A stretch of 64,000 nucleotides of DNA from Oscillospiraceae bacterium (GCA_015069095.1 SVJH01000002.1:7650-71649); one strand, 5' to 3'. Numbered from the stretch's first letter, positions 3,542 through 63,470 are shown. Notes: generated by a model not told the origin, from the sequence alone. Numbers and translations: made by a program.

Positions 3542-4543
3542 ATGGCTTTATTCGAAAGTTATGAAAGAAGAATAGATAATATAAATAAAGTATTAAATGC
3601 TAACGGCATTAAATCTTTGGAAGAAGCAAGAGCAATCTGCACAGAAAAAGGCTTCGATCCATACGAAATCGTAAAACAGATTCAGCCAATCGCTTTTGAA
3701 AATGCTGGTTGGGCATACGTTGTAGGTGCTGCACTTGCAATCAAAAAAGGCTGCAAAGATGCTGCTGACGCTGCAGAAGTTATCGGTGAAGGCCTTCAGG
3801 CTTTCTGTATCGACGGTTCTGTTGCTGACGACAGAAAAGTTGGTATCGGTCATGGTAACTTAGGTGCAATGCTTCTTAGAGAAGAAACAAAATGTTTCGC
3901 ATTCTTAGCAGGTCATGAATCTTTTGCTGCTGCTGAAGGTGCTATCGGTATTGCAAGAACAGCAAACAAAGTAAGAAAAGAGCCTTTAAGAGTTATTCTT
4001 AACGGTCTTGGAAAAGATGCTGCACAGATTATTTCAAGAATTAACGGATTTACATACGTTCAGACAAAATTTGACTACACAACAGGTAAAGTTAGCGTAG
4101 TTAAAGAAAAAGCATACTCTGACGGAGAAAGAAGCAAAGTAAGATGTTACGGTGCTGATGACGTTAGAGAAGGTGTTGCTATTATGCATCTTGAAGGTGT
4201 TGACGTATCAATCACTGGTAACTCAACAAACCCAACAAGATTCCAGCACCCAGTTGCAGGTACATACAAAAAAGAATGTATCGAACAGGGTAAAAAATAC
4301 TTCTCAGTTGCTTCAGGCGGCGGTACAGGAAGAACACTTCATCCAGATAACATGGCTGCTGGTCCTGCTTCTTACGGTATGACAGATACTATGGGAAGAA
4401 TGCACTCTGATGCTCAGTTTGCAGGTTCTTCTTCAGTTCCTGCTCACGTTGAAATGATGGGACTTATCGGCGCTGGTAACAACCCAATGGTTGGTATGAC
4501 TGTTGCTGTTGCTGTTGCAGTTTCTGAAGCAATGAATAAATAA
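3542..4543 (+). CDS. GGGtGRT-family protein (conserved, function unknown)
   Basis: Signature SGGGTGRTLHPDN is present. RBS AAAGGAGG upstream. The last ~98 nt are duplicated at 13527-13624. Confidence 0.8.
   Translation: MALFESYERRIDNINKVLNANGIKSLEEARAICTEKGFDPYEIVKQIQPIAFENAGWAYVVGAALAIKKGCKDAADAAEVIGEGLQAFCIDGSVADDRKVGIGHGNLGAMLLREETKCFAFLAGHESFAAAEGAIGIARTANKVRKEPLRVILNGLGKDAAQIISRINGFTYVQTKFDYTTGKVSVVKEKAYSDGERSKVRCYGADDVREGVAIMHLEGVDVSITGNSTNPTRFQHPVAGTYKKECIEQGKKYFSVASGGGTGRTLHPDNMAAGPASYGMTDTMGRMHSDAQFAGSSSVPAHVEMMGLIGAGNNPMVGMTVAVAVAVSEAMNK
4446..4543 (+). repeat. attL-like direct repeat (island-supplied 3' end of the GGGtGRT gene)
   Basis: 92 of 98 positions match 13527-13624 by hand alignment. 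Perfect 44-bp block at 4475-4518. Confidence 0.75.
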
Positions 4544-13526: not shown

Positions 13527-13624
13527 ACGTTGAAATGATGGGACTTATCGGCGCAGGTAACAACCCAATGGTTGGTATGACTGTTGCTGTTGCTGTTGCT
13601 GTACAGGAAGCAATGAATAAATAA
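13527..13624 (+). repeat. attR-like direct repeat (displaced native 3' end of the GGGtGRT gene)
   Basis: Encodes ...EMMGLIGAGNNPMVGMTVAVAVAVQEAMNK plus a stop, with no gene body upstream. A hairpin (13503-13527) abuts it. Confidence 0.75.
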
Positions 13625-17934: not shown

Positions 17935-18107
17935 TTAATTTTCCTCCTTCAAGATATTATTTTCATCCTGTGATTACATCATACAACATAAATTTTAAAA
18001 AATTATGAATAAATTGTAAATTTTACAAGATAATTTTGTGAAAAGGCTCCCTTGTGCAAAGGGAGCCTTTTTATTTGACAAAAAACACATTTTATAGTAG
18101 AATGATT

Positions 18108-18283
18108 ATGCTACAACTTACAAATTTAATATTATTTCAAATAAAGGGTTACGCTAATGTAAAAAGCGTATACTCTGATTCGTCATACTCTTTGTTTGGA
18201 ATAATAATTTGTATGTAAGTTGTAGCAGACCGAATCAAAGTCCCTACGTTTTTTATGCGTCGGCTCTGGTCGGCGCATTTTTT
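18108..18283 (+). promoter_or_regulatory. Structured 5' leader with intrinsic terminator (copy A of a 3-member family), class unassigned
   Basis: Promoter TTGACA (18075-18080), 17-nt spacer, TAGAAT (18098-18103). 14-bp closing helix 18109-18122 / 18214-18227. Inner hairpin 18150-18155 / 18165-18170. Terminator 18255-18278 plus a T-run. Confidence 0.6.
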
Positions 18284-29962: not shown

Positions 29963-30038
29963 TGGAGCTGGTGATCGGACTTGAACCGACGATCTATTGA
30001 TTACGAATCAATTGCTCTACCGACTGAGCCACACCAGC
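29963..30038 (-). tRNA. tRNA-Thr (anticodon CGU)
   Basis: Cloverleaf read by hand: acceptor GCTGGTG/CACCAGC, anticodon loop TTCGTAA, T-loop GGTTCAAGTCC, encoded CCA. A terminator hairpin lies downstream at about 29923-29962. Confidence 0.85.
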
Positions 30039-30230: not shown

Positions 30231-30323
30231 CTTCATCACCTCTTAAAAGTATTATGCAAAAACAAAAACTTTTTATACTACTTTACAAATAATACTACAA
30301 GTGATATAATATTGTCAAATATA

Positions 30324-30478
30324 AATCTTCAGGGCGGGGCGAAATTCCCCACCGGCAGTTATAGTCTGCGAGCTTTTTGCTGATTTGGTGAAATTCCAAA
30401 ACCGACGGTACAGTCCGGATGGAAGAAGAATTTTTATGTGTATTATTTTGCCCTGTTTTATATAAACAGGCTTTTTTT
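30324..30478 (+). promoter_or_regulatory. FMN riboswitch (RFN element) with terminator
   Basis: Conserved AGGGCGGGGCGAAATTCCCCACCGGC ... GATTTGGTGAAATTCCAAAACCGACGGTA ... CCGGATGGAAGAAG. Terminator CCTGTTT..AAACAGG plus a T-run. TGaTATAAT promoter upstream. Confidence 0.9.
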
Positions 30479-35599: not shown

Positions 35600-35799
35600 G
35601 ATAAATTCCTCCAGAATTAAAAAATGCGCCGACCAAAGCCGACGCATGAAAAACGCAGGGACTTCGATCGTTTTAAATATTGCTACATAATTAAAACACC
35701 ATATTTCCAAAAAAGAGGGTATGACAAATCGAAGTGTACGCCTTTCTTAAAATAGCGTACCCCTTATTGGAAATATTATTTTAATTAATTATGTAGCAT
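35600..35799 (-). promoter_or_regulatory. Structured 5' leader with intrinsic terminator (copy B)
   Basis: Promoter TTGACA (35827-35832 rc), 17-nt spacer, TAAAAT (35804-35809 rc). Closing helix 35785-35799 / 35681-35694. Terminator 35624-35647. Confidence 0.6.
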
Positions 35800-35840
35800 A
35801 ACCATTTTACTATAAAATGTGTTTTTTGTCAAATGAAAAG

Positions 35841-36105
35841 GCTCCCTTGTGTAAAGGGAGCTGTCGAGCAAACGCGAGACTGAGGGATTGTTTTATTATT
35901 TTTCTTTCTTTTTGCTTTATTCCTATTTTAACAATTACAATCCCTCCGAGTTGCTACGCAACCCACCTCCCTTTACACAAGGGAGGCTTTACGGGACGTC
36001 GTTTCGCGCCGTCCCCTACAATGTTTAAACCAATAAAATAACCGAGTGATTTATTTTCACTCGATTTTAATTTTATCCTTAATACCAACTCACTTATGGA
36101 ATGAA
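35841..36105 (+). repeat. Composite palindromic intergenic repeat (family B), full-length copy
   Basis: GGGAG-box hairpins at 35841-35861 and 35966-35986 bracket GAGACTGAGGGATTG ... CAATCCCTCCGAG arms. The tail is homologous to 1325-1488 in reverse complement. Confidence 0.8.
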
Positions 36106-36117
36106 TTTTTAAAAAAG

Positions 36118-36261
36118 GCTCCCTTGCCTAAAGGGAGCTGTCGAGCAAATGCGAGACTGAGGGATTGCTCTACATTTTTCCATACAAAAAAGGCACTCGA
36201 ATGAGTGCCTTTAAATCCCTCCGTCAGTCTGCGTCCGACACCTCCCTTTAGGCAAGGGAGG
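36118..36261 (+). repeat. Composite palindromic intergenic repeat (family B), core copy
   Basis: Hairpins at 36118-36138 and 36241-36261 bracket GCGAGACTGAGGGATTG ... AATCCCTCCGTCAGTCTGCG arms. Confidence 0.8.
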
Positions 36262-36273
36262 CAAAAGTAGGAA

Positions 36274-36359
36274 GCAAAGCGTATGCTTTGCATATGTTAA
36301 GTTTTTTGTGTTCCTTTTTTTCAAAAAAGGAACGATTTTGGTTCTTTTTTAAAAAGAAC
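36274..36359 (-). repeat. Three-hairpin intergenic repeat module (family A), copy 2 (inverted)
   Basis: Hairpins at 36274-36291, 36310-36333 and 36341-36359. Confidence 0.75.
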
Positions 36360-43876: not shown

Positions 43877-44101
43877 TTAATCATTATTTATATTAACACT
43901 TCTTCTTGGAACAACGGTTGATACTGCGTGTTTGAAAATAAGTTGTTCTTTTCCGTCAGATTCAAGAAGGATTGTGTAACTATCAAAACTTTTTACCTGT
44001 CCTCTTATCTGAAATCCGTTTGTTAAAAATACAGTAACGTCTATTTTTTCTTTTCTTACTGCATTAAGGTATAAATCCTGCAAATTCTGTACTTTACTCA
44101 T
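43877..44101 (-). CDS. hfq: RNA chaperone Hfq
   Basis: Sm motifs LQD.YLN..RKE...V.VFL.NG..I.G.V..FD.Y..LL and FKHA.STV. Confidence 0.95.
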   Translation of the reverse strand: MSKVQNLQDLYLNAVRKEKIDVTVFLTNGFQIRGQVKSFDSYTILLESDGKEQLIFKHAVSTVVPRRSVNINND

Positions 44102-51546: not shown

Positions 51547-51750
51547 TTAATAAAAATATAGCATAAGTGCGTTTTCAATTCTTTTTTCAAGTTCTTTATC
51601 ATTGAGTGTATCGGCACATAAAATAATATCTTTTATATCACTTATAAGTGCCTTTTTTCGTCTTTTTGCCCTTTCTTCGTCGCTGATTTTTTCAATTTCA
51701 ACTTCTGTAAAATATTCAACTTTGTAAAATTTATCTTTATATAAACTCAT
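51547..51750 (-). CDS. Small hypothetical protein (67 aa) downstream of leader copy C
   Basis: ATG at 51750 after GGAGAAAG. No recognisable family. Confidence 0.5.
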   Translation of the reverse strand: MSLYKDKFYKVEYFTEVEIEKISDEERAKRRKKALISDIKDIILCADTLNDKELEKRIENALMLYFY

Positions 51751-51764
51751 AAAACTTTCTCCAA

Positions 51765-51973
51765 AATTAAAAAATGCGCCCACCAAAGCGAGCGCATAAA
51801 AAACGCAGGGACTTCGGTTAGGTCGCTAAACTCTAAAATACGTGCTACGAATAAAAAATACGAAAGCGGTATTAAAACCGAAGTATACGCTTTTTGTAGC
51901 GTATACACTTCCGTTATTTTTTATTCATACATATCAGCACAAAATTATTCCATTTTCAATTTTAGAGTTTAGC
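51765..51973 (-). promoter_or_regulatory. Structured 5' leader with intrinsic terminator (copy C)
   Basis: Promoter TTGCCA (52003-52008 rc), 17-nt spacer, TAAAAT (51980-51985 rc). Perfect 15-bp closing helix 51959-51973 / 51825-51839. Terminator 51774-51797 plus a U-run. Confidence 0.6.
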
Positions 51974-52072
51974 ATATTTATTTTACTACATTTTTTTAAT
52001 TTTGGCAAGTAATTTTAAAAAATACCGCAAAATTAAACAAAAATAAAGGGCATTTTAAAAATGCCCTTTCCT

Positions 52073-63231: not shown

Positions 63232-63470
63232 AAAAAAGATAGAGGCGCAATTGTTAATAAGTAGTTTTTAACAAGGTTTGGCAAAGCCGTTTTAAGTTAA
63301 ATACAAAAGGTAACATTGCCGAAGAACATTTTTTATGCCGGAAAATGTATCTGGGCATACGCAAAATATGCGTATGACTGTCACTTTTATAGTGTTGTGC
63401 TAAAAGTGTTGTGCTATCGCCATATATATTGTATATACAGGCGGAGGCATAAAGCATCCGTCTTTTAATT
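63232..63470 (+). promoter_or_regulatory. Lysine riboswitch (L-box) with terminator
   Basis: Conserved elements AGAGGCGC, TTGCCGAAG, CTGGG, CTGTCAC and GTGCTATC in the expected order. Terminator hairpin at about 63440-63463 plus a T-run. Upstream of asd. Confidence 0.8.

Follow-up and report, generated by a model that had tools for sequence, protein, structure and literature searches.

The S-box (SAM-I) riboswitch contains a helix kink that lets the terminal loop fold back into a pseudoknot, and in the ZTP riboswitch (pfl motif) the 3' strand of the pseudoknot is shared with the expression platform that lies before the intrinsic terminator. Here we describe a leader RNA that resembles these and other known platforms functionally, is a member of none of them, and has an unusual sensor geometry. 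The leader, copy C, is encoded on the minus strand of a 64,000-nt stretch of DNA from an Oscillospiraceae bacterium (GCA_015069095.1 SVJH01000002.1:7650-71649), which we refer to as the window. It consists of a long hairpin (the rod) with a smaller hairpin, P2, at its tip, a conserved 3' block that begins with a switch strand, and a terminator, followed by a small gene. Copy C truly belongs to a widespread and hitherto undescribed family of leader RNAs, ~200 nt long, in gut Clostridia, and it is probably a cis-acting transcription-attenuation leader of a new RNA family, in which termination is gated by a pseudoknot between a bulge at the rod tip and the switch strand.

Like the S-box, the leader has a promoter-proximal structured domain followed by a terminator and a gene, with anti-antiterminator, antiterminator and terminator tiers in competition, and the one-sided bulges of its rod could act in the manner of the SAM-I kink. 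Unlike the S-box, it has no Rfam match and no four-way junction, its sensor is the tip of a ~39-bp rod, and the genes behind it (the cargo) do not belong to sulphur metabolism. With the ZTP riboswitch it shares a long-range pseudoknot that joins distant parts of the leader. In ZTP, however, the 3' strand overlaps the terminator and the ligand prevents termination; in our leader, which has no match to this family in Rfam either, the pseudoknot captures the antiterminator strand and therefore should cause termination, the opposite outcome. The T-box is similar in its long hinged stem near the 5' end, its choice between terminator and antiterminator, and its use of one leader type before many genes, but our leader has no specifier loop, T-box sequence, UGGN bulge, aminoacyl-tRNA-related cargo or RF00230 match. 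In the H-type pseudoknot riboswitches (preQ1-II, SAM-II, fluoride), too, a stabilised pseudoknot sequesters a regulatory strand, and A-rich and U-rich segments may pair or form triples; these RNAs are compact, however (~50-80 nt), whereas the two strands in our leader are a ~39-bp rod apart and the pseudoknot can be extended by invasion of a hairpin.

A scan of the whole window with Rfam 15 at gathering thresholds found only an FMN riboswitch (30321-30434, plus strand), a lysine riboswitch (63232-63424, plus strand) and a tRNA (29966-30038, minus strand), all away from copy C. With permissive settings, copy C, copy A and a consensus-like relative yielded nothing but chance matches below threshold. 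Searches of the open literature by cargo, topic and conserved sequence returned no match, and there was none in 200 of the 408 supplementary files of one large microbiome RNA catalogue, where an unnamed entry is possible. The parts of copy C are as follows, in the order of transcription.

52008-51980, minus strand: sigma-70-type promoter (-35 TTGCCA at 52008-52003, 17-nt spacer, -10 TAAAAT at 51985-51980)
51973-51825, minus strand: long rod hairpin, from the fold and from family covariation
51906-51883, minus strand: tip hairpin P2, GUAUACGCU / AGCGUAUAC, with the A-rich loop ACAAAA
51895-51886, minus strand: AAAAAGCGUA, the 3' part of the P2 loop and the P2 3' strand, complementary to UGCGUUUUUU
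51884-51876, minus strand: pseudoknot 5' strand ACUUCGGUU, in the 3'-side bulge adjoining P2; partner at 51819-51811
51824-51820, minus strand: 5-nt linker GACCU between rod base and switch strand
51819-51798, minus strand: conserved 3' block, made up of the switch strand AACCGAAGU (51819-51811), CCC (51810-51808) and UGCGUUUUUU (51807-51798)
51797-51774, minus strand: hairpin of the intrinsic terminator (10-bp stem and T-run), with a U-tail to 51769
51762-51755, minus strand: ribosome-binding site (RBS) GGAGAAAG, before a 67-aa open reading frame (ORF; ATG at 51750, stop at 51547)

An original prediction, made from the sequence, had credited copy C with its own promoter, a perfect 15-bp closing helix, an extended interior, the same conserved block as two other copies in the window, and a terminator, and all of these hold. 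The promoter can be read in the sequence and was recovered independently by a consensus scan, with an inferred transcription start at about 51973-51975. The rod base helix, GCUAAACUCUAAAAU (51973-51959) paired with AUUUUAGAGUUUAGC (51839-51825), has 15 bp and no mismatch, and is also present in the minimum-free-energy (MFE) fold. The interior that it closes off measures 119 nt, more than in copies A and B, and contains a small side hairpin and 5'-side bulges. Along the path from base to tip, the rod has ~41 bp. The 231-nt leader folds with z = -7.2 relative to shuffled sequences. The conserved block GAAGUCCCUGCGUUUUUUAUGCG is present, and the 23-mer GAAGTCCCTGCGTTTTTTATGCG (51815-51793 in copy C) occurs three times in the window at up to two mismatches, against an expectation of zero from 100 shuffles. 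The terminator stem has 10 pairs and is followed by a T-run.

The other two copies in the window precede genes for short Cys-rich proteins, and a fourth, copy D, was found on another contig of the same genome by a pattern search of the whole assembly; it precedes a third Cys-rich paralog. The rod sequences of copies A-D differ and their pairing is retained.

18110..18283, plus strand: leader copy A, upstream of a 58-aa Cys-rich ORF (109.5 bits)
35619..35797, minus strand: leader copy B, upstream of a 59-aa Cys-rich ORF (105.1 bits)

A loose pattern search of related genomes revealed true relatives in other genera. The bit scores are from a covariance model, R1, which was built from eight sequences, extends from the rod tip through CGUUUUUU, and has P2 and the long-range pairing annotated. 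R1 matches 36 of the 67 genomes of the window's family (the order comprises the same 67 genomes) and 58 of 399 genomes sampled evenly across the class Clostridia. The carriers in this sample come from 31 of 217 genera and ~12 families and have between 1 and 6 copies each. Named GTDB genomes, scanned first with a pattern and then with R1, contributed 30 further copies, in metagenome-assembled genomes labelled Clostridia, Oscillospiraceae, Acutalibacteraceae, Ruminococcus, Ornithomonoglobus, Ructibacterium and Eubacteriales. The pooled loci comprise 90 matches, 87 of them distinct, and these form the alignment A6 to which the family-wide counts below refer.

The family has a constant layout. Nearly all copies have a -10-like hexamer, mostly TATAAT, ~6-7 nt upstream of the rod's first base, so the RNA starts at the rod foot. 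The base helix is GCUACA.../...UGUAGC with a bulged G on the 3' strand, and it covaries (ACCACA/UGUGGU, GCUAAA/UUUAGC, GCUAUA/UAUAGC, GCAACA/UGUUGC, GCCACG/CGUGGC). The middle of the rod is variable and carries one or two large bulges of 6-12 nt in the 5' strand with nothing opposite, often AAUUGAAU or UUGAAUAUU; some copies, including copy C, have a small inserted hairpin there. Above it, the upper helix of 13-16 bp shows double-sided changes in nine of ten pairs. P2 has the family form GUACGCU / AGCGUAC with the loop ...UGUAAAAA, is paired in 96.6% of cases over the 87 sequences and shows compensatory C-G to U-A changes, and it is followed by the 3'-side bulge ACUYYGNUU-CGUCAUA. The rod is joined by a linker (median 7 nt) to the block, in which the switch strand, CAC or CCC, and UGCGUUUUUU follow each other in this order before the terminator. 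Conservation across the ~12 families is strong in the P2 loop, in the CGUCAUA remainder of the bulge and in the one-sided rod bulges.

The evidence for a pseudoknot is comparative. Over its first 9-10 nt, the bulge can base-pair with the switch strand, and the two strands change together, both among the copies of this genome and between genera:

Copies B and D, bulge / switch: ACUUCGAUU / GAUCGAAGU, taken as reference
Copy A, bulge / switch: ACUCUGAUU / AAUCAAAGU, one C-G to U-A exchange compared with B and D
Copy C, bulge / switch: ACUUCGGUU / AACCGAAGU, one A-U to G-C exchange compared with B and D
Other genera, bulge / switch: ACUUUGUUUC / GAAACAAAGU or ACUCUGAC / GUCAGAGU, different sequences

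On A6 the pseudoknot is 97.6% paired, with changes on both sides in eight of the eight pairs counted. These values were reached in none of 500 shuffles, a count that is not a probability given that A6 was fitted to the pseudoknot and its sequences are related; sliding the partners by 1-3 columns reduced pairing to 34-51%. Because of this fitting, we also ran an alignment-free test, in which cognate bulge/switch duplexes had a mean energy of -10.6 kcal/mol, compared with -5.9 kcal/mol for non-cognate combinations. We consider the pairing of bulge and switch strand to be established at the level that comparative analysis of sequences can reach.

The pseudoknot can be extended at the expense of P2. 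UGCGUUUUUU at 51807-51798 is complementary to AAAAAGCGUA and, together with the pseudoknot and a 1x3 internal loop, would make one duplex of ~20 bp; RNAduplex chooses the UGCGUUUUUU/AAAAAGCGUA register in every duplex printed, that of copy C included. The mean energies over the 87 copies are -19.9 kcal/mol for the full duplex of tip and block, -10.3 kcal/mol for the pseudoknot alone and -7.2 kcal/mol for P2. In L043 the block has a C-to-U change and the P2 3' strand a matching G-to-A change, and the remaining changes in the block are transitions that preserve a G-U or A-U pair. The extension needs an open P2, and P2 itself covaries; both the P2-closed and the P2-invaded states appear to be under selection.

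The block has a second potential partner in the 5' arm of the terminator. The distal part of this arm and the loop resemble the bulge strand, and the first bases of the arm, UGCGU, repeat the UGCGU of the block. Switch strands pair better with their own terminator (-10.7 kcal/mol) than do those of other copies (-8.3 kcal/mol; Wilcoxon p = 3e-9). At least seven contiguous pairs between switch strand and terminator are possible in 52 of the 87 copies, as opposed to 15% of shuffles, and the matches fall within the 5' arm, or the 5' arm and loop, in 80 of 87. The 3' arm, also tried as a partner of the block, was at shuffle level (mean z = +0.16). We then folded, for each copy, a cut transcript that begins at the switch strand and ends shortly after the terminator loop. 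The resulting antiterminator hairpin has an outer helix between switch strand and arm/loop, an inner helix in which GCGU pairs with GCGU or GCGC, and a loop formed by the U6 tract. With a generous window for the switch strand, at least 5 nt pair with the terminator in the MFE folds of all 87 cut transcripts; under a stricter definition of the strand, the outer helix forms in 78 and the inner helix in all 87, with a mean of -14.1 kcal/mol. In copy C, the outer helix pairs ACCGAAGU (51818-51811) with GCUUUGGU (51789-51782) and the inner helix GCGU (51806-51803) with GCGC (51795-51792), giving -14.2 kcal/mol for the antiterminator compared with -14.9 kcal/mol for the terminator. In a plain MAFFT alignment, to which no structure had been fitted, the antiterminator hairpin is 78.9% paired, compared with 28-54% when slid. 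As computed, then, the terminator competes with a mutually exclusive antiterminator, which has a strand in common with the sensing domain. Computation has demonstrated the anatomy, the covariation of the pseudoknot and the presence of competing helices in all copies.

Several other pairings and a leader peptide were considered and rejected. The 5' strand of P2 makes only 3-5 bp as an antiterminator strand, and fewer in this genome. Pairing of GUCCCU as an anti-Shine-Dalgarno sequence was poor in a check by hand, and the antiterminator was preferred. UAUGRU, a conserved potential partner of GUCAUA, belongs to the base helix in the main subfamily. Copy A has, by eye, a 37-codon frame from the start site, but the corresponding frame in copy B stops after four codons.

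Our proposed mechanism assigns the block the role of antiterminator strand and the rod tip that of anti-antiterminator. Transcription would start at the rod foot. If the tip holds the block, the terminator would form and the cargo gene would be off; if the block is free as the 5' arm of the terminator emerges, the antiterminator would form first and the polymerase would read through. The bulge could serve as a toehold from which the block invades P2, and stabilising or opening P2 would then bias the outcome. The competing energies are about -12.7 kcal/mol for the full tip duplex minus P2, about -14 kcal/mol for the antiterminator, and a mean of about -19 kcal/mol for the terminator-containing segment; the alternatives are nearly isoenergetic, as expected of a switch. 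The helices presumably control termination in vivo, with pseudoknot formation as the event that would cause it, and the leader may sense a specific ligand or protein.

The genomic setting of the leaders agrees with such a role. A conserved structured domain lies between promoter and gene, on the strand of the gene, as in an attenuation leader. Strong intrinsic terminators (-11 to -22 kcal/mol) are present in all 87 copies and start 0-2 nt past the U6 tract. A same-strand ORF preceded by an RBS follows 75 of the 87 leaders, and the covariance search and catalogue of downstream genes envisaged in the original prediction gave 66 of 87 in which an RBS and start codon follow the terminator at no more than 45 nt (median 25 nt), and leader and gene always have the same orientation. 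At this distance there is no room for a separate promoter. In seven cases, however, the leader precedes another leader instead of a gene, the next complete leader with its own promoter following about 140-190 nt later, and three more leaders have no ORF. Leaders without a gene behave as stand-alone transcription units; they may be decayed cassettes or tandem attenuators, or their terminated RNA may have a function of its own.

The last of these options, taken for the family as a whole, would make the terminated RNA of ~170-220 nt the product, a trans-acting small RNA (sRNA), possibly bound by Hfq, with its proximity to genes incidental or secondary. Each copy does have its own promoter and strong terminator, and the stand-alone leaders in tandem arrays and those without an ORF would be natural examples. 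The U-rich tract before the terminator hairpin and the U-tail after it (UGCGUUUUUU-hairpin-UUUUUU) also fit, as the Hfq-binding module of enterobacterial sRNAs has this arrangement of U-rich tract, hairpin and U-tail, and the window contains an Hfq gene at ~43895-44083 (minus strand; 107 bits against PF17209), near mutS and miaB. The layout of promoter, terminator and U-tract is thus that of an Hfq-dependent sRNA, but a conserved trans seed and independence from genes were not found. The candidate seed, the switch strand, varies from copy to copy within one genome and shows covariation with a partner inside the leader, which argues for pairing in cis and not for a shared target in trans. The close spacing of terminator and RBS in 66 of the copies leaves no space for another promoter, and mimicry of the pseudoknot strand by the terminator arm makes sense only for control of that terminator. 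We regard the sRNA explanation as improbable.

Tandem arrays of two or three leaders are found at L195:1264-1858, L176:281-660, L130:3397-3811, L065:5497-5863, L180:283-663 and L093:536-949. In the four that we read (L176, L130, L195 and L065), each leader has its own promoter and terminator. Most arrays have no intervening gene, and the pairs in L180 and L093 are separated only by short ORFs of 31-32 aa. One leader (90.7 bits) lies on a predicted viral contig (IMGVR_UViG_3300029305_011494, L204:11783-12313), where it follows a CI/LexA-like repressor gene; the 45-aa protein behind it (MNITTEMYTKLFNELTD...) and the protein behind the L114 leader are of one small family. This occurrence suggests that some cassettes travel on prophages; deposited phage genomes contained no leader match. 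We also considered that the element might be mobile or repeated DNA, such as a palindrome resembling a miniature inverted-repeat transposable element or a duplicated cassette, or a self-cleaving ribozyme, and not a regulator. The arrays, the up to six copies per genome, the palindromic repeats that flank both copy A and copy B, and the viral contig with its CI-like repressor are what one might expect of mobile DNA, and variable stems combined with conserved loops and a pseudoknot are also found in ribozymes. Against this, the rods differ in sequence between copies and still pair, which points to selection on RNA structure instead of recent copying. Copy C is not bordered by terminal repeats or target duplications, strand and position are fixed relative to promoter, terminator and gene, no Rfam ribozyme family matches, and the deposited phage genomes gave no match. 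An origin of this kind is highly improbable.

The repeats themselves are a family separate from the leader. They are GC-rich palindromes (GCTCCCTTGTGCAAAGGGAGC and composites) that border copies A, B and D and occupy the spacer at ~35.2-36.4 kb; they occur in the window at 18032-18073, 35827-35993, 36104-36289 and 1475-1619, and in L004:1-130.

The cargo of the 75 leaders with an ORF is diverse:

YpsA/SLOG family proteins (PF06908): 29 of 75 leaders, the commonest cargo
Cys-rich mini-protein: four leaders
Lipoproteins with an Ada-type zinc domain: a few, without an exact tally
MazE/AbrB-like, bacterial PH and rhodanese proteins: one representative of each scanned
Secreted proteins: several, judged from sequence and not by domain search
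Small helical orphans: many

No recurrent neighbouring gene beside the leaders, such as a regulator, was found other than the cargo. Two loose groups of helical mini-proteins were recognised by eye only: those behind the leaders L114, L204, L068 and L057 start with M..Y..(M/L)Y..LFN......IL, and those behind copy C, L065:5742, L194 and L048 end with L.D.E(K).E....L..Y.

The surroundings of the copy C cassette are as follows:

52069-52045, minus strand: terminator of the upstream DUF4364 gene
51548-51529, minus strand: terminator of the 67-aa gene, closing the cassette
51501-51473: promoter of miaB, beyond the terminator of the 67-aa gene

The 67-aa protein had been described as showing no similarity to the Cys-rich proteins of copies A and B, and BLASTP indeed gives no alignment between them even at E <= 100. 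It has no Pfam match, and a word-indexed protein search returned only the protein itself. An exhaustive search showed it to be a rare but real family, with six clusters among 1.8 billion representatives; the five clusters beyond the protein itself are 47-63% identical to it and share the invariant pattern YFTE...EE..RR...L..DI..I. In relatives with 48-60% identity the leader is still upstream, with ...RILEFSDLTEVPAFF... identical. The leader has thus been kept in front of orthologous genes, and the RNA is better conserved than the protein. Two of the relatives (proteins P0002 and P0005) were called with long N-termini that are in fact translated leader and terminator: the sequence MYTL.KAYTS...RILEFSDLTEVPAFF in these N-termini matches a spurious frame of the window at 51908-51747 (minus strand). 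The spurious frames that run through the copy C leader are 51747-51908 and 51547-51786, both on the minus strand.

The view of the original prediction that the RNA, and not the protein, is the conserved unit is therefore supported by the covariance-model search, by the unrelated cargo families and by a leader that is better conserved than the protein behind it. Its further suggestion, a functional module controlling a small regulon, stands in part. Four small genes in this genome have the leader, but the cargo of the family at large is broad, and regulation itself is something we infer.

Several points weigh against pseudoknot-gated attenuation. We found no ligand, binding protein or coherent cargo function that would indicate a signal. 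No RNA run with the window sequence was found; only DNA metagenomes from faeces and gut matched. Of the 87 leaders, seven stand before another leader and three before no gene, and the shuffle counts for the pseudoknot come from an alignment fitted to it. The UGCGUUUUUU/AAAAAGCGUA extension is 98% paired and nearly invariant, so covariation cannot prove it. Covariation of the antiterminator in the MAFFT alignment is modest, and its register differs between subfamilies. There is also a problem of geometry: the pseudoknot has to span a rod of 39 bp (median), with the bulge at its tip and the switch strand ~7 nt from its foot. A straight rod cannot form it, and bending at the one-sided bulges is needed. 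Rod length and linker length show no correlation (Spearman -0.01).

The lack of a signal is what would be expected if the leader were a passive 5' module, independent of any signal, whose rod serves to stabilise or process the transcript (for instance as a 5' stem-loop or RNase III site) and whose terminator allows a fixed low read-through or a generic response to temperature, nucleoside triphosphate level or polymerase speed at the U6 tract. The promoters look constitutive, the rod is a long, near-perfect duplex, and the three alternative structures are close enough in energy for a fixed partition between them. However, a passive stem has no need for a P2 loop, a CGUCAUA sequence and one-sided bulges conserved over ~12 families, and a covarying long-range pseudoknot together with a mimic in the terminator arm is an elaborate design for a fixed attenuator. 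We think it rather unlikely that the leader is passive.

If the leader is a pseudoknot-gated attenuator, the geometry of the rod may be part of how it works. The one-sided bulges lie 13-16 bp below P2 and are candidate hinges. The shortest members of the family, L050 and L051, are ~130 nt long and consist of 13 bp, an 8-nt bulge and another 13 bp, a layout that would fold into a neat U. Bending of the hinge could itself be the regulated step. By analogy with pseudoknot riboswitches, one might guess that the conserved tip and hinge recognise a factor, which then stabilises the pseudoknot and switches the genes off. We tentatively put forward the more specific possibility of a new riboswitch class with a hinged-rod sensor, in which the rod would have to fold back at its conserved one-sided bulges for the tip to reach the switch strand, and a small molecule or protein at the hinge or tip would set termination by a toehold-like invasion of P2. 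The commonest cargo, YpsA/SLOG, has a fold that is predicted to bind nucleotides, so the signal could be a nucleotide-derived messenger without a known riboswitch.

A further side observation in the window is a 98-nt direct repeat, 94% identical, at 4446-4543 and 13527-13624, the two units being 9.1 kb apart.

The findings have a practical consequence for annotation, as gene callers turn the leader into false N-terminal extensions of cargo proteins. The mechanism may also be of use elsewhere: one 22-nt strand contested by a distant hairpin tip and a terminator arm, and extendable by invasion, amounts to strand-displacement logic that could be reused in synthetic biology. For the bacteria themselves, the leader would join genes that have no assigned function into one co-regulated set, which includes those for YpsA/SLOG proteins, Cys-rich and helical mini-proteins and secreted wall-associated proteins. 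About one in seven of the sampled Clostridia genomes, mostly from uncultured gut species, carries 1-6 copies, which makes the leader a common uncatalogued control element of the gut microbiome. A co-regulated set of genes is the usual path to the ligand of an orphan riboswitch, and from there to a signalling or stress pathway; a hinged-rod riboswitch, if confirmed, would bring dozens of small orphan proteins from gut Clostridia together in one regulon.

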